64,000 nucleotides of DNA from positions 16,889 through 80,888 of the forward strand of contig JAPOOC010000008.1 in the NCBI GenBank assembly GCA_026713605.1, read 5' to 3'. A program made the position numbers and the translations under genes. Below, one piece after another: positions 41,848 through 50,496 of the stretch. Numbering within the stretch: position 1 is the stretch's first letter; each line of letters starts with the position of its first letter. The notes beneath the pieces are model-generated. The model made no database searches. It worked only from the letters and a program-made list of their open reading frames with translations, and was not told the DNA's origin. Source of the stretch: Candidatus Kaiserbacteria bacterium (GTDB lineage: Bacteria; Patescibacteriota; Minisyncoccia; Phycocordibacterales; JABAAK01).

Positions 41848-42351
41848 TTATATTTTTCTGCTGTCGTATGCCCAGTGCAACACTGCTTGGCGCTGTCTTT
41901 TTCTACACTCTAAATCTTTGGTGGCGCAGTTGTTTTGTACTGCTGTTATATGCCGTTTCATATTTTTCCAGCGTTTGATTTGGCGGACATCATCCTCATG
42001 TCGCCTGCCCACATAGTAGCGACAGTACCACTGAAACCATCCACGCGGATCATCTTTGTGGAGCCAACCCTTTTCTTTCCAGTGCTTGAGCGGCATAGAA
42101 GCATGTACTTTGAAATAGTTGAGATTTTTATCCCGTTCCCCATCAGCAACTTTTGCCTTTTTGAACCAACTTTTTGGAAATTCGTCTGTGTAGCCATCAA
42201 AATACATACCGCCGAAAACCCCCAGCTCAAGCATCTGTTTTGGAGAAAGTTGTGGCTTGAAGTCAGTGGCGAAGTGTTTACCTGCGGGCTCGGTGCATGT
42301 GTAGCTGTACCCTTTCTGCATCTTGTCACTTGTTTTGATTTTTTTGCGCAT
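41848..42351 (-). CDS. conserved hypothetical protein (Trp-rich motif GWFQWYCRYYxGRR)
   Basis: 167 aa, basic. Motif looks like a conserved family but I cannot name it. Confidence 0.4.
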   Translation of the reverse strand: MRKKIKTSDKMQKGYSYTCTEPAGKHFATDFKPQLSPKQMLELGVFGGMYFDGYTDEFPKSWFKKAKVADGERDKNLNYFKVHASMPLKHWKEKGWLHKDDPRGWFQWYCRYYVGRRHEDDVRQIKRWKNMKRHITAVQNNCATKDLECRKRQRQAVLHWAYDSRKI

Positions 42352-42444: not shown

Positions 42445-42849
42445 TTACGGGTAGCGGGTTATCTCGACCCTGCCATCTCCGTTTATCTCCGGTCCTTCGT
42501 CTCCCTCTCTGAAAAGTGTGAGGTGCAGAGTGCCTTCTTTGGCGAAAATCTCTGATACCTCACCGCGGTCGGTTATCTCGACGGTACCGTTGCTCACTGA
42601 GACCTGGGTAAGACCGGTGCTGAAGAAGGTTCTGCCTTCGTGCACCCTTGCGTTAAAGAATGGTTTTTCGTCTTCAAGGTGGTACACATCTACCACCCTG
42701 TTATCGAAATATATGGCAAGCCCTTTACCCTCAATCTCTTCTTTTTCTTCAGGATCACTTTTTTTGAGGTGATTCCCAAACAAAATTCCTATAACTAATA
42801 TGACCGTGATGCCTATGACTGCCACTGTGGCATTCTTTTCCATTTTCAT
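42445..42849 (-). CDS. membrane-anchored/secreted hypothetical protein
   Basis: N-terminal TM (VAVIGITVILVIGILF), 134 aa. Confidence 0.4.
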   Translation of the reverse strand: MKMEKNATVAVIGITVILVIGILFGNHLKKSDPEEKEEIEGKGLAIYFDNRVVDVYHLEDEKPFFNARVHEGRTFFSTGLTQVSVSNGTVEITDRGEVSEIFAKEGTLHLTLFREGDEGPEINGDGRVEITRYP

Positions 42850-43137
42850 TTCCTCATTCTCCTTGTTTGGCTAAAGGTCAGGTGAAGGGTTGCGTGTCCT
42901 CAACTTCATTTCTCATTATAGCATATGTTTATTTGTATATCAGTGTGTTTTGGCCTTTTTATTATCCGTTTAATTTTTTGATTAGTTTTCTGTTTAAGAT
43001 GGTTGACCACTTTTCTCCTGTATTTAAGTTCAAAAGATAAATGCAACACTGGTCACATTATTCAGTAAATACAAACACTGATACTGCAGATACTCGGGTT
43101 GCTTGAATAGGCAGCATCATATCTGGTGTGAGAGGGT

Positions 43138-43548
43138 TTAGAGTAGATCTTTATACTCCAGAAAATTTTTCTTGACAAGTGTTTTCCATGCATCAGTTTC
43201 ACCGCCGGAACCTGATAGATGACTTTTGTGATAAACAAGCAGCACAATGACCTGTTTCTCAGCTGCGCACATCGCAACAATACACCTGTTGCCCGATCCG
43301 TGTCGTGACTGAGTGGTTTTAGCAACACGGAACTCGGTTTTGCAGATTTTAATACCTCGCTTGTCGATGATCATTCTTGCCACCCCTCTCTCAAGAAGTG
43401 TATCAAACATTCTGAAACTTCTTTCTATAGATGTCTGTGTTTTATCCCATGCGTCTTTATACTTTTTTCTAAATTTTTTGACATAGTGTTTCTCAGAAAA
43501 CGGTGTGAAAGAAACAGCATACTCGGCATTGCTATTGTTAGTAGACAT
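43138..43548 (-). CDS. type II toxin, RelE/HigB/Gp49-like fold (partner of the Panacea antitoxin)
   Basis: EFRVAKTTQSRHGSGNRCIVAM...VIVLLVYHKS matches the RelE/HigB pattern (ELRv...yRviY...vivLl..hKk). Overlaps the upstream gene by 11 nt. Confidence 0.55.
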   Translation of the reverse strand: MSTNNSNAEYAVSFTPFSEKHYVKKFRKKYKDAWDKTQTSIERSFRMFDTLLERGVARMIIDKRGIKICKTEFRVAKTTQSRHGSGNRCIVAMCAAEKQVIVLLVYHKSHLSGSGGETDAWKTLVKKNFLEYKDLL

Positions 43549-44230
43549 ATTTCGGATCCTCCTGAATGATCAATTCATATGGAATAATCTCATTTTCCTT
43601 GCAGAATGTGTATGGTATTTGTTGATGAGTGAAGTCAACGATTTCTTTTGTCCGTTTGTTTTTCCACTTTTTTGAGATATCGGTAATAAGCTTTTCTTCC
43701 TCACGGGAAAGTATTGCGGTTGATTCTCGCTCTCCTCCCTTCTTTTGAGATATAAGTAGTGCTCCGTCATCTGTTTTTTCTATGTCAATTTTACCCGCTT
43801 CATATAGCTCGTCCACGACCCGAAAGTATGTGTCAGGTACCGGTCCGTATGCTATCTTTCGATACTGCATACCACTCATGCTTTCTAAGTGATCATAATA
43901 CCATGCAAAATCTGCAAGGTAGAGCAGTTTTGCAAGTTTGGTCTTTGGCACCCTGCCATCTCTTGAAAGATTGTTTCGTAAAAAAGCGAAGAGCATTTGT
44001 TTGTATTTTTCAAAATTTGGTTTTTCTCCACCTAAAAAATCATTAACAGATACGCCGAGAATGTCGGCAAGTTTTTTTGCTTCTGTAAGTTTCGGGTCCC
44101 GCACCCCTTTTTCAAGTGCGATATATGAGGCGCGGGAAATGTTTAATTTGTCAGCAATTTCCCGTTGCGAAAACTTCCTTTGCATGCGCACATCTTTTAT
44201 GGTTGAGTTGTTGCTGTTTTTGTTATTCAT
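43538..44230 (-). CDS. HTH-XRE + Panacea (DUF4065/SocA-like) domain antitoxin
   Basis: N-terminal HTH (FSQREIADKLNISRASYIALEKG). C-terminal KLAKLLYLADFAWYY...IAYGPVPDTY, the Panacea signature (KLxKLLY...AW.yGPV..Y). Confidence 0.65.
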   Translation of the reverse strand: MNNKNSNNSTIKDVRMQRKFSQREIADKLNISRASYIALEKGVRDPKLTEAKKLADILGVSVNDFLGGEKPNFEKYKQMLFAFLRNNLSRDGRVPKTKLAKLLYLADFAWYYDHLESMSGMQYRKIAYGPVPDTYFRVVDELYEAGKIDIEKTDDGALLISQKKGGERESTAILSREEEKLITDISKKWKNKRTKEIVDFTHQQIPYTFCKENEIIPYELIIQEDPKYVY

Positions 44231-44705
44231 GCCGTTGTTATTACTTACAGCATATCTCCCTGATAAAAAATGTCAATAAAGTTGTACACAGCGTGTCTGT
44301 TTTTTGATATTAAAAGTGCCGGTAAGACCGCTCGTAAAGCAGATTTGGACACATCACGCTGTTGTGTGGTGTGTCTTTGTATTGTGTGGTGGTCTTAACA
44401 CTGTTTTACTCAAACTTGAGCAGGAGTGTGACGATACTTCGCACGCTCCACCCGCCAACACGCCCTAACCCATCCCATACGCTCCAAAACTACAGTAAAC
44501 ACCTTCACCAAGTCGCTCCGCTTACTCCGGACTCGTGTTTCACTTCGTTACACACCAGATCTTCCGTGCGCTCCGATCCCGCGCCAATCTTTGCCCACAT
44601 TCTCTTTTGCCTTTTAAGCGAGCGCAGTCGCATTTGCCATTTTTGCTGTTCTAGTAAGTTTTATATCTAATGTCAAAAGTGTTTTACAAGAGCGCTCCAC
44701 CGCTT

Positions 44706-45161
44706 CTAAAATAACAGTTCTATCTTTTTTGAAAACATGCCGTTTTCTGGTATTTCATTATCCGCTCTCTTTGATAGTTCATATGCTTTTTTTATTTCAG
44801 TTTTACTCCTCTGCTTTAACACACTGTCAGTGTGACTATGCAGCATATCAAAAAAGTACATCATTGTTTGTTCACGGTTTTTCTTTCTCAGAGCTAATTC
44901 TTCATAGGTTTGTTGTGATACAACAAACTCTAGCCATCCGTATGCATTGGAAATAAGGTGCGAAAAAAGATGGCTCATGCACCCAAAATCTTTCATCAAA
45001 TGCTCCAGGTTTTTCTCTTGTACAAAGGTTAAGAAATCGTCATCCGCACCGTTCTTAAAAAAATAATTACCCCAATCTGCCAGGTGGGACATTATGTTTG
45101 AATCTAAGTACATAAACCTGCAATCCGGTTTGCCGAAACATGAACCTAAATATGTAAGCAT
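44706..45161 (-). CDS. hypothetical protein (AT-rich island)
   Basis: 151-aa ORF divergent from the GHKL operon. Confidence 0.4.
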   Translation of the reverse strand: MLTYLGSCFGKPDCRFMYLDSNIMSHLADWGNYFFKNGADDDFLTFVQEKNLEHLMKDFGCMSHLFSHLISNAYGWLEFVVSQQTYEELALRKKNREQTMMYFFDMLHSHTDSVLKQRSKTEIKKAYELSKRADNEIPENGMFSKKIELLF

Positions 45162-45263
45162 ATCATTATGGTAGCAAATTACCTCTTACTTTGGTATATC
45201 ATTTCCCTGTATTAAACAGAAACACTATATTTATTACCACAGTACTATATTTAGTATATAATG

Positions 45264-45292
45264 TTGCTATTTTCAAAAGCATCTGCTACAAT
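45264..45292 (+). promoter_or_regulatory. sigma70-like promoter (TTGCTA-17-TACAAT) for the small-ORF/GHKL operon
   Basis: ttgcta N17 tacaat, 8 nt before ATG 45301. Confidence 0.45.
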
Positions 45293-45300
45293 ACGAGCGT

Positions 45301-45525
45301 ATGGAGAAATCCAAGGAAAAACAGGAACGATTCAGACGGCTGGCGACGGCACGCACAAACTCCGTATTGAAAACACTCAATACGCTTGGACATTGTTCCA
45401 ACAGAAGTGCCTACCATTACTCTGAGGAGGAGGTGAAAAAAATATTCTCTGAGATTGAGAACGCTGTAAGAGGTGTTAAGAGTAAATTCCATTATCCGAG
45501 AAATAATAAAAAGTTCAGTTTATGA
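45301..45525 (+). CDS. small basic protein, translationally coupled to the GHKL ATPase gene
   Basis: 74 aa. Stop overlaps the start of the next gene (atga). Confidence 0.45.
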   Translation: MEKSKEKQERFRRLATARTNSVLKTLNTLGHCSNRSAYHYSEEEVKKIFSEIENAVRGVKSKFHYPRNNKKFSL

Positions 45526-48077
45526 ATCACAGGAAAAATAAAAAAATACTTTTAGACTTACTCAAATGTCAAACTTCTGAAGAACTTGAAAAGATTATTC
45601 AGAAAGAACGCCTTGATAAGGAAGCGTGGATTCCTTATGGTGGACGCTCAAACAATGTAGGAACAGTAGAAGGACAAATGAGGGAAGCAGAAAACGCATT
45701 GATGGAGAAAGTTACAAATTCAATTGACGCAATTCTGATGAGAAGATGTTATGAGGAAGGGATTGATCCTTATGATAAAAGTGTTGCACCAAAAACAGTA
45801 GATGAAGCAGTTGAGCGCTTCTTTGGAGGCAGAGAAAAAATTAGGGAAAAAAGATCAGAGTTTGCCAAAGAATGGTTGCGTATTACTGCTGAAGGAAAAA
45901 AAGACAGACCAACAATAACAATTGTAGATAAAGGTGAAGGGCAAGAGCCAAACATGATTAAAAAAACCATCCTTAGCCTTAATGAAAATACAAAAGAAAG
46001 AATTCCTTTTGTATACGGAACATATAATCAGGGTGGTTCAAGCCCTCTTGGTTTTGCAGGAGCGCCTGAAAAATATGATTTTAATTATCTCCAACTTGTT
46101 TTGTGTCGCAGCTCTCTAAAAAATGGAGATAAAAAAGATGGTAATCACGACCACTTTGGTTTTACGGTTGTGCGAATGCGCTTTGATGAAAGTTCAGAAA
46201 AATATGTTTATGAATATCTTGTCGAGAAAGATACAGAAAATATTTTTTCTTTTCCTATGGATGAGGTGATAAAAATAGATGATTATAAATTTGAGGAGGG
46301 TTGTGTAATTAAATTATATGATTATCAGCTTGCAAAAGGAGGGAATATTATTTTTCGTGGCTTTAATGAATTTATTGAAAAGAAACTTCCCAATTCTCCT
46401 TTACCAATTTACTTAAAAGAATTACGAAATTATAAAGGTGATGATAACTATACAATATTTGGATTAAAAGAAAAACTGATTAGAAGAAAAGATATACTGC
46501 GGAGTGGATACCCCCAAGCACTTCCTATTGACCTTGGTGAGATTGGCAAAAAAGAGATAAATCTTTTTATATTAAAACACAAGGCAGAGGCTGAAGGAGG
46601 GGAAATCAAATCGTACTTAGATATGTCTGAACGAGTTTTCTTCATAAAGGATGGGCTTGTTTTGCATGCGGAAACTAAATCTTGGCTTAAAAATGAATGT
46701 GGTTTAATTGATCTGTCTCCATATGTTATAGCATTTATTGATATTTCAACAATTAGTCCTGCAGTTGCCAAAATGCTTCATTCAGGAAGAGAAAAATTTA
46801 AGAACAATGCGACAACAAAGACAACTCTTAATAGATTAAAGGTATTCTTTTCCGGTGAAGATTTTAAAGACCTTGATAAAGAATACGGGAGACTGGGACT
46901 AAACTCGGATACTAAAATTGAAGATAGGGATATCAAAAAAGCAATACTAAAAGAAGTTGAAAACCAACCGAAATTAAAAGAACTTTTTAATATCGGAGTT
47001 GATTTTCCTGTTAAAAAAGGGCAAACATATACGCCACCAAAGATTGACTCGAAATATCAGGGAACATATCTCCCTGAAAAATTTAATCTTCTGGGCACAA
47101 ATCCACGAGAAATTGAAGAAAATTCATATTGTAGAATATCCTTTGATACCGGTGCTGATACGGATTTGTTTGAACGGCAAGAGGATAGAGGTGAGTATGA
47201 TTGGGAAAAATCAGAAAATTTTGACATTACTTTTTTATCGTTTAGAAATGGAATAACCACCTTTCGTGTAGATCCAAAAGAAAAAACAAAGCCACCTGAA
47301 GAAGAAGCATTGATTTTTTCTCTTAGTGTACCGTCCAAAGACATTGAATTAACAAGAACAATTAATATTTTATATAAAGAAAAAGTTCCCTATAACGGAA
47401 AGAGATTTCCAACATTTTTTAAACCACCTGAAGAGGTGAAAATTGTAATAGGAAAAAAGACATCCTTGCGCATAAAAACAGATGCGGATAATGATTATAT
47501 CAGTCGAGATGAAGCCCCTGGTACCATAATTTTTAAAAAACATAATGATCTTGACAACAGTACACCAAAACTTAAGGATGGAATTCTTTCTATTCAAATG
47601 CAATACACAGGAAAGGAAATAAAAAAAGTAGAAAATATAGACATAACCGTAAAAGATAGGGAGAAACACTTTGATTTCTCATTACCGGTAAAAATTATTC
47701 GAGACAAAAATAATCCAGAGGTAGATTTGCCGGAGATAGAAGTGGTAGATAAAACAAAATGGCAGCATCATACCCCAGAATGGGATCAAGAGGTTATCGC
47801 CAGAATTCCATCTTGGACAGAGTTGAAAAAAATCAGAATCAATACTGATTCTGATCCGTTTGAAGATTTGCGAGAGATACCTGGCGAACAAAGAGAAATT
47901 GCAAAGACTCTTCTGATAAAGAAGATTTACAGGGATTCAATTTGGATGTTTCTTGAGTTTAGGGATCTTAATCTCACTAGTGATAGCGATCGAGATGAAA
48001 GAGATATTGTTTTTGAGAAATCAATTCGTGCTGCATCAAAGATAACAATTCAGGATATCAAAAAATTAATTCGTTAA
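45522..48077 (+). CDS. large GHKL/Bergerat-fold ATPase domain protein (paraMORC/HSP90-like N-terminus, ~650-aa uncharacterised C-terminal region)
   Basis: N-box EAENALMEKVTNSIDA (aa 55-70), G1 box IVDKGEGQE (aa ~135-143), G2 box GTYNQGGSSPLGFAG (aa ~167-180). No match seen for nuclease motifs in the rest. Confidence 0.6.
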   Translation: MNHRKNKKILLDLLKCQTSEELEKIIQKERLDKEAWIPYGGRSNNVGTVEGQMREAENALMEKVTNSIDAILMRRCYEEGIDPYDKSVAPKTVDEAVERFFGGREKIREKRSEFAKEWLRITAEGKKDRPTITIVDKGEGQEPNMIKKTILSLNENTKERIPFVYGTYNQGGSSPLGFAGAPEKYDFNYLQLVLCRSSLKNGDKKDGNHDHFGFTVVRMRFDESSEKYVYEYLVEKDTENIFSFPMDEVIKIDDYKFEEGCVIKLYDYQLAKGGNIIFRGFNEFIEKKLPNSPLPIYLKELRNYKGDDNYTIFGLKEKLIRRKDILRSGYPQALPIDLGEIGKKEINLFILKHKAEAEGGEIKSYLDMSERVFFIKDGLVLHAETKSWLKNECGLIDLSPYVIAFIDISTISPAVAKMLHSGREKFKNNATTKTTLNRLKVFFSGEDFKDLDKEYGRLGLNSDTKIEDRDIKKAILKEVENQPKLKELFNIGVDFPVKKGQTYTPPKIDSKYQGTYLPEKFNLLGTNPREIEENSYCRISFDTGADTDLFERQEDRGEYDWEKSENFDITFLSFRNGITTFRVDPKEKTKPPEEEALIFSLSVPSKDIELTRTINILYKEKVPYNGKRFPTFFKPPEEVKIVIGKKTSLRIKTDADNDYISRDEAPGTIIFKKHNDLDNSTPKLKDGILSIQMQYTGKEIKKVENIDITVKDREKHFDFSLPVKIIRDKNNPEVDLPEIEVVDKTKWQHHTPEWDQEVIARIPSWTELKKIRINTDSDPFEDLREIPGEQREIAKTLLIKKIYRDSIWMFLEFRDLNLTSDSDRDERDIVFEKSIRAASKITIQDIKKLIR

Positions 48078-49378
48078 ATTTTTTCCATCACCACGATATA
48101 TTCATATTCGTACGCTCTTATCTTTGAAGGATTATCTTTTCCTGTAAATTTTCCTGTCTCTATGTCGCGCCATGGAGTTATCATTTTATTGGGAATTTCT
48201 CGTTTAATAAACCTAACCTTTTCAAATCCGGCATGTTGCATTTGCTCTGCAGCGACTTGTGCATTAAGTATGGCAACACCTCGTAAATTAGTATTACCAA
48301 TAATAATACATGCCTTGCCATCTTTTTTAAGAATACGATACATTTCTCCAAAAACTTTTTTCATATCCAAGAAATAATTCGCAACATCTGTTGCGAGTGA
48401 TTGATTAACCTGTGATAAGTCATTTACAATTGATTTTGCAATGGTACTATTGAATTCTCCGGTTTTTCTTCTCTTTGAACTTGTACCAATAAAGTTTCTA
48501 CGAAAGTCAATAAATTCATCACTAAACCTGCTCCATCCTTTAAAGTGTTTTGGATCATTACCAAACCAAAGCAAAGATAGTTGATGTAAATCAGCGTATT
48601 CATATGAAGTAACATATGGGGGTGAAGTGATAATTAGGTCAACACAGCCGGATTCAAGAGGAAGTTTTTTTGTAGAATCTCTACGATACATTTTTGCAGA
48701 AACTTTTTCATTGCCGGATTCAACAAGTTCAGAATAAAACTTCTCATTTTTCTTAATCATTGAGTCAAGGTGGCGTAAAAATGATTCTTTTACATTAGGG
48801 ATATCTTTATCCTTGTCTATCGTTGGTTTAATACTCTTCATCAACCAGCGTGAACAATTCTTAAGATTGTGTGAAAAAGCACAAAGAAAAAAACGCCTGA
48901 CATTATGGTTTTTTATTTTCTTGATTGCAAAATAAATCCTTTCTAACTCTTGAGCCGTTTTTTCGTCAAACCAATAATTGATTCGCCCGTGTCTATCTGA
49001 AAAGGTTAAAGGAGTGCTTTTATAATATGTTAAAAACTTGTCTTTGTAATTGGTTAGCGTTTTAGGTTTAATAGGGGTAGTTTTTGTTTGAGTTATAAGT
49101 TTTGCAATGGGGTTTATATCAAAACCAATACTTTTGTGACCCAACATTTTTGCCTCCACCAGGGTCGTGCCGCAACCACCAAAAAGATCACATATAATCT
49201 GCTCATCATTAGGTGCATAATCTTTTATTAATTTTTGTACAATTTGGGGGATAAATTTTGCAGGGTAACGGTGATAACTGTGAGTAAAAGCCGTTGTTTC
49301 TGATCTCCCCACATCACGGAAAGACCAATTTTTTCTTGGTTTTAATTTTTTAAAAGATTGTTGAAGAGAGGTAAGCAC
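48074..49378 (-). CDS. N6-adenine/N4-cytosine DNA methyltransferase (amino-MTase)
   Basis: Motif I DLFGGCGTT near the N-terminus and motif IV SPPY (IITSPPYVTSYEY). Converges on and overlaps the GHKL gene by 4 nt. Confidence 0.75.
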   Translation of the reverse strand: MLTSLQQSFKKLKPRKNWSFRDVGRSETTAFTHSYHRYPAKFIPQIVQKLIKDYAPNDEQIICDLFGGCGTTLVEAKMLGHKSIGFDINPIAKLITQTKTTPIKPKTLTNYKDKFLTYYKSTPLTFSDRHGRINYWFDEKTAQELERIYFAIKKIKNHNVRRFFLCAFSHNLKNCSRWLMKSIKPTIDKDKDIPNVKESFLRHLDSMIKKNEKFYSELVESGNEKVSAKMYRRDSTKKLPLESGCVDLIITSPPYVTSYEYADLHQLSLLWFGNDPKHFKGWSRFSDEFIDFRRNFIGTSSKRRKTGEFNSTIAKSIVNDLSQVNQSLATDVANYFLDMKKVFGEMYRILKKDGKACIIIGNTNLRGVAILNAQVAAEQMQHAGFEKVRFIKREIPNKMITPWRDIETGKFTGKDNPSKIRAYEYEYIVVMEKI

Positions 49379-49592
49379 AAGTTTTACATGAACATAACTA
49401 TTATACCAAAATTATAATAATCCGCCGGGCGAAGGAAATCCGCCGTTTCCGCAAGGCAGGCAAGCGGAAACTTGACGGATTGCAAGAGTTCTCTCGCCCC
49501 ATCTCACCCATCATTTTCTTTTGCCTTTCAGGTGCACTTGTCGTAGGACTGGTGCTGGTGAAAGGTGGTGAAGTAATGAATGGTTTGTGTAG

Positions 49593-49667
49593 TGGACCCG
49601 ACAGGGCTCGAACCTGCGACCTCCGGAGTGCAAAACCGGTGCTCTAAGCCAACTGAGCTACGGGCCC
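49593..49667 (-). tRNA. tRNA-Ala (anticodon UGC)
   Basis: Reverse complement: acceptor gggcccg/cgggtcc with G3:U70, loop ttTGCac, T-loop ttcgagc. Confidence 0.75.
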
Positions 49668-49722
49668 AACATAGGTCAGTATACTACATGGCAATATAAT
49701 TGTGTAGTATACTTAGTGTACT

Positions 49723-49968
49723 ATGGGAATAAAAGGATTTTTGACTAAAAAAATGCTAGAAAATCAACTGAAGCATATGCCGGAAGAGCAGCGGAAGGTG
49801 TTTCTGCGTATGTTTGAAGAAAACCCAGATTTGTTTGAAAAAATTGCGAAGGAGGTAAAGGAGAAAAAGAAGAGTGGGCAAGATGAGATGCTCGCCGCTG
49901 CGTCGGTGATGCGGAAGTATCAACCGCAGATGCAGGAGTTGTTGAAAAAAATGGGGCATACTACCTAA
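49723..49968 (+). CDS. small helical hypothetical protein
   Basis: 81 aa, K/E-rich. Confidence 0.4.
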   Translation: MGIKGFLTKKMLENQLKHMPEEQRKVFLRMFEENPDLFEKIAKEVKEKKKSGQDEMLAAASVMRKYQPQMQELLKKMGHTT

Positions 49969-49971
49969 TGT

Positions 49972-50496
49972 ATGGAGATTCCCGTGACTTTTCTTTCGTT
50001 GATTGAAAACTACCTTGTCGGGGTACTGCTCGGTGTGTCTACCTTGGCTGTCATTTCGTATGGCATTGGTTTGCGATTTGGGTATCCGCAAGAGGGGATA
50101 GGGCAGGCACTTATTCAAAGTATCTATACTGTTCTCCGCCTGTTTCATATCTTTTTTGCAATCTTGGTGGCACTCTACATTATTATATTTGGTATTCTTG
50201 ATGGTGTTCCAGAGGTCTGGTATGAGTATGGTGTGAAGGCGGCCGTGCTGACAGTGAATGCAGTTATAGCGTTTGGTATGACTCGGTGGCGTAAGGTGTT
50301 TCCTGTTGACTACGCTGCACCGGCAATTGGTGCGGGGTGGTACTTTTTGGCATCGTATCACTCTTATTACAGCGCAGTGGGTGTGCAGGCGACTGGTGTT
50401 GTTGATGCGGCGGTGCTGTACTTCGCACTCTTTGGGATTTTCCAACTCGTGTTTCTTGCCCTGCGGCATTTTGTGCGCCCCATTGATGCAGGGTGA
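49972..50496 (+). CDS. membrane protein (hypothetical)
   Basis: 4-5 TM helices. Confidence 0.45.
   Translation: MEIPVTFLSLIENYLVGVLLGVSTLAVISYGIGLRFGYPQEGIGQALIQSIYTVLRLFHIFFAILVALYIIIFGILDGVPEVWYEYGVKAAVLTVNAVIAFGMTRWRKVFPVDYAAPAIGAGWYFLASYHSYYSAVGVQATGVVDAAVLYFALFGIFQLVFLALRHFVRPIDAG

Follow-up and report, generated by a model that had tools for sequence, protein, structure and literature searches.

A wide range of unrelated toxins is bound in complexes and neutralised by antitoxins built around the Panacea domain (PanA), which were defined by Kurata et al. (2022, PMC8832971). A helix-turn-helix (HTH) domain was present in 343 of these PanAs, and their partners included ParE-type and other known toxin domains (PMC8832971). 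One of the toxin (PanT) groups in Dataset S1 of that study, T14 (cluster pT15), has a representative whose best HHpred match was HigB-2 (99.73%) and includes two Saccharibacteria entries, Candidatus Saccharimonas aalborgensis and an oral TM7, in which an HTH-PanA precedes the toxin (order A|T) with a spacing of -11; all T14 entries, whose listed members include WP_015641600.1, WP_129619247.1 and WP_067091868.1, are marked 'notest' (PMC8832971). For the HTH-PanA:MqsR pair of Lactobacillus rossiae, both toxicity and neutralisation were shown by Ernits et al. (2023, PMC10440598), who argue that a lone Panacea domain may itself neutralise the toxin, and that in antitoxins with several domains Panacea may be a sensor. 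Here, we describe a pair of this kind in a 64,000-nucleotide (nt) stretch of Candidatus Kaiserbacteria DNA, which we call the window. It consists of an HTH-Panacea gene, panA, and an overlapping downstream gene, panT, which codes for a small protein with a well supported, modelled RelE/ParE fold. The pair is a real PanAT module of an ordinary, already catalogued toxin-antitoxin (TA) type, and its toxin is probably a ribosome-dependent mRNase.

A first-pass annotation of the window had pointed to two minus-strand open reading frames (ORFs) with an 11-nt overlap. Both could be read from the sequence as described, and the peptides it quoted were found in the two translations (upstream protein, KLAKLLYLADFAWYY...YGPVPDTY; downstream protein, EFRV...VIVLLVYHKS). 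These are real genes and not chance ORFs, since PanA gave Pfam matches and the toxin has homologues with strongly conserved motifs. PanA scored 54.1 bits with HTH_3 (cut-off 23; E = 1.6e-14) and 55.5 bits with SocA_Panacea, PF13274 (gathering score 25.7; E = 1.3e-14), the latter match spanning profile positions 1–111 of 113. Its proposed identity as an Xre-type HTH plus Panacea protein was thus confirmed at the level of sequence profiles, because these curated hidden Markov models (HMMs) were matched above their cut-offs, and the Panacea domain was the best-conserved part of PanA across loci. Other libraries (NCBIfam, PHROGs and PADLOC) returned generic HTH-regulator matches, plus weak ones to SocA and the DarG region, and a profile of 31 PanA orthologues found PDB relatives through the HTH only (a PbsX-family regulator, C.BclI, HipB and SinR).

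For PanT, at least 334 homologues were detected at E <= 0.01, all of about 131 amino acids (aa) and none with a Pfam domain. Those with a named source came from Patescibacteria. Because a 100% identical protein comes from a Candidatus Kaiserbacteria metagenome-assembled genome (MAG), the earlier suggestion of a genome like those of the Candidate Phyla Radiation (CPR) was right. When 1.84 billion cluster representatives (clusters at 50% identity) were searched exhaustively with a profile, only 220 clusters came up at E <= 1e-3, and the family is, judged by such profiles, compact and isolated in sequence space. In PHROGs, the toxin matched only phrog_5869 (E = 9e-4), to which no function is assigned, and neither phmmer with the toxin nor a profile of its close family found anything meaningful among PDB sequences. 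When 91 relatives were scanned one by one against Pfam, the output was noise and a single weak match to PF06296 (E = 0.014), obtained by one of the 47 members of an alignment of divergent relatives (25–47% identical to the window toxin; designated A2). Residues T37, K70, F73, R88 and E117 were invariant in A2, and W34, S81, G86, Y106 and K108 were conserved in at least 90% of its sequences; near-invariant residues of the N-terminal part were H21, K28–K31, W34 and T37. None of these searches placed PanT in an existing sequence family.

An AlphaFold2 (AF2) model of PanT, built with a 44-sequence alignment, had a predicted local distance difference test score (pLDDT) of 90.8 and a predicted template modelling score (pTM) of 0.85. 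Its strands (residues 11–14, 57–63, 66–73, 87–94 and 99–107) and helices (16–30, 32–46, 48–53 and 117–128) followed the order b1-a1-a2-a3-b2-b3-b4-b5-aC, in keeping with the beta-alpha-alpha-beta-beta-beta-alpha topology of the RelE/ParE superfamily (an N-terminal strand and two helices, then three or four antiparallel strands as a sheet, with a C-terminal helix in some members). In a Foldseek search of PDB, toxins of this superfamily filled almost all of the first 35 ranks, among them archaeal RelE (1wmi, probability 1.0, TMt 0.68) and YoeB (7v6w, TMt 0.71). The list also contained V. cholerae HigB2 (5ja8, 5mje and 8a0x), T. thermophilus RelE, M. tuberculosis RelE2, PrpT, PfiT, YafQ, HP0892, ParE2 and E. 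coli RelE and HigB, and the BFVD viral fold library gave no informative match. We regard the RelE/ParE fold, as modelled, as well supported. The first-pass annotation had proposed a RelE/HigB/Gp49-like core for the downstream protein; the RelE/HigB part was supported by this fold, by a HigB-2 match in PDB and by hhalign, whereas the specific link to Gp49 (PF05973) was not.

The top PDB sequence match of the A2 profile was V. cholerae HigB-2 (E = 0.019), with akasGnRlivlv...illvYsKn aligned against GKRGGSRIIYYF...LLTIYGKN. Homologues were collected with a HigB-2 query that proved to be 100% identical to database entries, all of which were PF06296, and 31 of these homologues were aligned. Against this HigB-2 family alignment, hhalign of A2 gave a probability of 78% (P = 1.8e-5) over 56 columns, compared with 0.1% for a reversed target and at most 19.4% (median 0.3%) for 30 column-shuffled targets. 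In this alignment, R88, Y106 and K108 of PanT fell on Arg64, Tyr82 and Lys84 of HigB-2. The active site of HigB-2, an mRNase that depends on the ribosome, resembles that of RelE, and changing Arg51, Arg64, Tyr82 and Lys84 to alanine lowered the activity of this toxin 170- to 3000-fold, or 350- to 3000-fold for the last three residues alone (Hadzi et al. 2017, PMC5416850). The same comparison with E. coli RelE (sequence entered by hand) was not significant (probability 2.8%), with K70 and R88 falling on Lys54 and Arg61. An affinity of PanT to HigB-2 is probable.

When set beside the known systems, the window pair and T14 are alike in having an HTH-PanA, the antitoxin-toxin order, the 11-nt overlap (that of the two Saccharibacteria entries), CPR hosts and HigB-2 as the top relative; they were compared by architecture, host phylum, spacing and HigB-2 affinity, and the T14 representative reached 99.7% to HigB-2, whereas the window family reached 78% with a shallow HigB-2 alignment. 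V. cholerae HigB-2 (PF06296; 5ja8 and 8a0x) has the fold of PanT, an alignable motif, G-x-R-(I/V)-(I/V)...LL-x-(I/V)-Y-x-K, and a C-terminal helix after the sheet, and both antitoxins contain an HTH. However, PanT is 26 aa longer, has a distinct conserved N-terminal helical region and an extra invariant Glu117, does not conserve an equivalent of Arg51 and shows no HMM-level membership. HigA-2 neutralises by a disordered N-terminal segment, whereas the antitoxin described here is an HTH-Panacea protein which is unrelated in that respect; the gene order of higBA-2 and the domain order of its antitoxin also differ from those of the window pair. The fold is likewise that of E. coli RelE and of other ribosome-dependent mRNases (YoeB and YafQ), and toxins of this kind were the top structural matches (archaeal RelE 1wmi and YoeB 7v6w), but the antitoxins, such as RelB, are of a different type and sequence similarity to RelE was not significant. 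The MqsR:PanA pair of L. rossiae also joins an HTH-PanA to a toxin which is an RNase and belongs to the RelE superfamily in the wider sense; however, PanT had no MqsR match in Pfam and no MqsR among its fold matches.

A genome scan at one genome per species found a PanT relative in at least 176 genomes; 80 loci were kept, which together with two loci that were looked up separately gave 82. In both of the latter, a gene with HTH_3 and SocA_Panacea domains lay immediately 5' of the toxin gene, in unrelated contexts. A PanA homologue (E = 1e-67 to 1e-129) was present directly 5' and on the same strand in essentially all of the 82 loci with sufficient upstream DNA, and the six loci that lacked a PanA call were due to over-extended ORF starts or contig ends. 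The PanA-type pair that had been claimed for this locus is therefore a two-gene arrangement, strictly conserved in about 80 other genomes, mostly of Patescibacteria. PanA orthologues in these loci were 50–84% identical to that of the window. With starts placed by alignment, the spacing between the two genes in 76 loci was -11 in 49, -14 in 14, +2 in eight and +3 to +8 in five. Pairwise distances of PanA and PanT co-varied (Mantel r = 0.62, 0 of 2000 permutations), and the partners were therefore inherited together. By comparison, flanking genes were unrelated (241 of 281 flank clusters were singletons, and the largest occurred in eight loci), no third conserved gene was found and the window neighbours recurred in none of the 82 loci. 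The panA/panT pair is a fixed, autonomous module which is independent of neighbouring genes. Searches of viral contigs (IMG/VR), plasmids (PLSDB) and phages (GenBank) turned up no relatives.

In two of the 82 loci (L012:2935-3384 and L023:3001-3399), the toxin ORF was split in two beside an intact PanA, which may reflect decay of the toxin by a frameshift or stop, or an assembly error. A disrupted toxin beside an intact antitoxin is a pattern reported for TA loci. Although the module is otherwise restricted to Patescibacteria, close homologues (46–56% identical) also occurred in MAGs labelled as other phyla or as DPANN archaea. The labels were Gammaproteobacteria (L003, L017, L024 and L032), Nanoarchaeota and Pacearchaeota (L004 and L025) and Bacteroidia (L007), and they could be explained either by mis-binning or mislabelling or by horizontal transfer.

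The pair is likely a PanAT type II TA system with a RelE/HigB-2-like ribosome-dependent mRNase as the toxin, in which PanA binds and neutralises PanT and represses the operon via its HTH. According to this model, a single promoter would drive panA and then panT, with translation coupled via the overlap. Free PanT would enter the ribosomal A site and cleave mRNA by means of a basic RelE-type site on the face of the beta-sheet (K70, R88, Y106 and K108), possibly assisted by E117. PanA would bind and neutralise PanT via the Panacea domain, conserved flanking segments or both, and its N-terminal Xre HTH would repress the promoter of its own operon. For this pair, we infer that PanT is toxic and is an RNase which depends on the ribosome, that PanA neutralises it directly and that the operon is autoregulated.

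Several results weigh against this model. In HMM searches of Pfam, NCBIfam and PADLOC, nothing matched the toxin at E <= 1, and the curated models of RelE, ParE, HigB and Gp49 (PF05016, PF06296, PF05973, PF15738 and those of NCBIfam) did not match it, so that the profile matches which the first-pass annotation had expected of the downstream ORF were absent from both Pfam and NCBIfam. The hhalign probability was 78% and not above 95%, it covered only the 56 C-terminal columns and its target was picked after the PDB match had been seen, and no Foldseek match in PDB had E < 1e-3 (the best was 3.3e-3). HigB-2 Arg51 aligned with toxin position 74, which is R or K in close relatives and variable in divergent ones; judging from the alignment, the invariant K70 on the same strand presumably stands in for it. 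A single-sequence structure model of PanA had a pLDDT of 40 and was discarded, and the promoter region of the window contained just one TTGACA and not the TGTCAA-N5-TTGACA palindrome of some related loci. Multidomain PanAs often neutralise by an element other than Panacea (Ernits et al. 2023, PMC10440598). Finally, proteins with the RelE/ParE fold can alternatively be gyrase poisons.

PanT might instead be such a poison, acting on DNA gyrase in the manner of ParE and not as an RNase: ParE, PrpT and ParDE2 structures are present in the Foldseek list (7ycs at rank 7 and 8c26 at rank 26), and the long N-terminal two-helix hairpin of the AF2 model (residues 16–46) recalls ParE toxins. ParE-domain PanTs have also been reported by Kurata et al. 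(PMC8832971). We nevertheless consider a gyrase poison very unlikely: ParE structures ranked below RelE, HigB2 and YoeB with lower TM-scores, PF05016 was not matched and hhalign with RK2 ParE (sequence entered by hand) gave a probability of 0.1%, the sole sequence-level affinity of PanT was to HigB-2, and its basic R/Y/K triad is conserved and aligned with proven catalytic residues of that toxin. The triad, which is that of RelE and HigB-2, also speaks against the idea that PanT is a nuclease of RelE fold with a different target or mode of action, which would cleave mRNA independently of the ribosome, as MqsR does, or would cleave rRNA or tRNA; so does the dominance of ribosome-dependent toxins among the fold matches, the top 50 of which included no MqsR or BrnT structure. 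A new specificity would in that case come from the enlarged and highly conserved N-terminal helical module (KKYK, W34 and T37) and the invariant E117. Relative to RelE or HigB-2, PanT indeed has some 25–45 additional aa, the hhalign match leaves out its N-terminal half, which nevertheless holds near-invariant residues, and the PanT family is isolated (220 clusters among 1.84 billion proteins). Furthermore, an acidic catalytic residue such as E117 could be is absent in HigB-2 and RelE (PMC5416850), and MqsR, the validated partner of an HTH-PanA, belongs to the same superfamily and is an RNase that acts without the ribosome (PMC10440598). On balance, this alternative is unlikely.

A broader version of the same thought holds that PanT represents a distinct, CPR-centred lineage of the RelE superfamily, without a Pfam model and with a target or chemistry unlike that of HigB-2 and RelE, and that Panacea is the trigger sensor of an abortive-infection module. 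Some 220 clusters at 50% identity, nearly always with one HTH-Panacea partner, would then make up the lineage, the N-terminal module and Glu117 would alter the target or chemistry, and the pair would be a widespread defence module of Patescibacteria; its neighbours here, in an island of low GC, are a methylase of the restriction-modification type and a tRNA gene. We find this doubtful. It is also conceivable that the pair is not a TA system at all, and that the HTH-Panacea protein is a phage-like or Xre-type transcription factor with a non-toxic RelE-fold partner or co-regulator. The best PHROG and PADLOC matches of PanA were generic transcriptional regulators, reached through the HTH, toxicity of the pair is a prediction, and the catalogued T14 pairs are marked 'notest' (Kurata Dataset S1). 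This is highly improbable, however, given the classical type II layout (antitoxin first, overlapping genes and an autonomous mobile two-gene unit), the strong constraint on catalytic-type residues of PanT, the possibly disrupted, split toxin ORFs next to intact PanA in two of 82 loci and the fact that Panacea-domain proteins are experimentally established antitoxins (PMC8832971). The features of the locus are collected in Table 1.

Table 1. Features of the panA/panT locus, with positions in the window.
Feature	Position	Strand	Basis
panA, 230-aa antitoxin candidate, Xre-type HTH + Panacea (DUF4065)	43538..44230	minus	ORF and Pfam
panT, 136-aa toxin candidate, RelE/ParE-superfamily fold, HigB-2 nearest	43138..43548	minus	ORF, homologues, AF2, Foldseek, hhalign
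HTH_3 (Xre/Cro-C1) DNA-binding domain, PanA residues 11-64	44039..44200	minus	Pfam PF01381
Panacea (SocA_Panacea, PF13274) domain, PanA residues 99-206	43613..43936	minus	Pfam
Predicted promoter-like site, TTGACA-16 nt-TATGCT	44249..44276	minus	consensus scan, 10/12 matches
Shine-Dalgarno sequence AGGAGG of panT	43558..43563	minus	read from sequence
Overlap of panA stop and panT start, 11 nt, ATGTCTACTAA	43538..43548	minus	read from sequence
Beta-sheet core, toxin residues 57-108, with candidate active site K70, R88, Y106, K108	43225..43380	minus	conservation and HigB-2 alignment
Invariant E117 of toxin	43198-43200	minus	conservation in alignment A2

The promoter-like site is sigma-70-like and ends 19 nt upstream of the panA ATG. 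The panA stop codon TAA (43538–43540) lies inside panT, whose ATG is at 43546–43548, and this overlap suggests translational coupling. The AGGAGG of panT, a strong Shine-Dalgarno sequence, is located 9 nt 5' of its ATG, within the last codons of panA, which encode the Q-E-D of the PanA C-terminus; QED is kept in PanA homologues, and a Shine-Dalgarno-like motif precedes the toxin gene in 26 of the 76 related loci. Upstream of PanA orthologues, TGACA/TGTCA occurred 1.30 times per 130 nt, compared with 0.17 in control windows (7.6-fold), an enrichment which is partly the -35 hexamer. A near-perfect TGTCAA-N5-TTGACA palindrome was present in six loci, and one with N4 in one more, about 44 nt before the PanA ATG (these loci include L008, L010, L013, L020 and L040). 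Such palindromes are weak candidates for an operator of the HTH and would fit autoregulation.

The 475-nt region 5' of panA (44231–44705) was considered as a structured RNA and rejected (no Rfam match, folding z-score of -0.40). It contains five copies of GGAGCG on the minus strand within 255 nt (44444–44698), compared with 37 copies on both strands of the whole window. Between panA and the upstream 151-aa ORF there is also a terminator-like hairpin on the plus strand (44347–44376), with a 13-bp stem followed by a T-rich tract; no plus-strand gene ends there.

The pair is included in a low-GC island (42500–49700; GC 0.33–0.41 versus 0.46–0.50 on either side), which ends at a minus-strand tRNA gene (49593–49667) and has the appearance of an accessory or defence islet that became integrated. 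At 48077–49378, the minus strand codes for a Type II DNA methyltransferase (PADLOC MTase_II, E = 3.9e-56; Pfam N6_N4_Mtase). Convergent with it is a plus-strand gene (45522–48077) for an 851-aa protein which had no Pfam, NCBIfam, PADLOC or PDB match and only a sub-threshold similarity to HATPase_c_3 (E = 0.12, residues 56–160); it may be a cognate restriction or ATPase component. Other neighbouring ORFs had no significant match in Pfam or NCBIfam, nor in PADLOC where this was searched. They are located at 44706–45161 (minus, 151 aa), 45301–45525 (plus, 74 aa), 42445–42849 (minus, 134 aa), 41848–42351 (minus, 167 aa) and 49756–50469 (minus, 237 aa).

The finding overturns nothing that is known. 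The pair is a textbook-style type II TA module, and its value therefore lies mainly in annotation, and also in its convenience as a model. Several hundred 'hypothetical proteins', which are common across Patescibacteria and were missed by Pfam, NCBIfam and PADLOC, can now be named and assigned a likely mechanism. The strictly co-inherited HTH-Panacea and RelE-fold proteins lend themselves to asking how a RelE-type toxin would be neutralised by a Panacea protein that lacks PAD1, ZBD and Phd-C domains, and whether Panacea acts as a sensor, which Ernits et al. (2023, PMC10440598) did not settle. As the genomes of Patescibacteria are tiny, each accessory module that they retain is informative.

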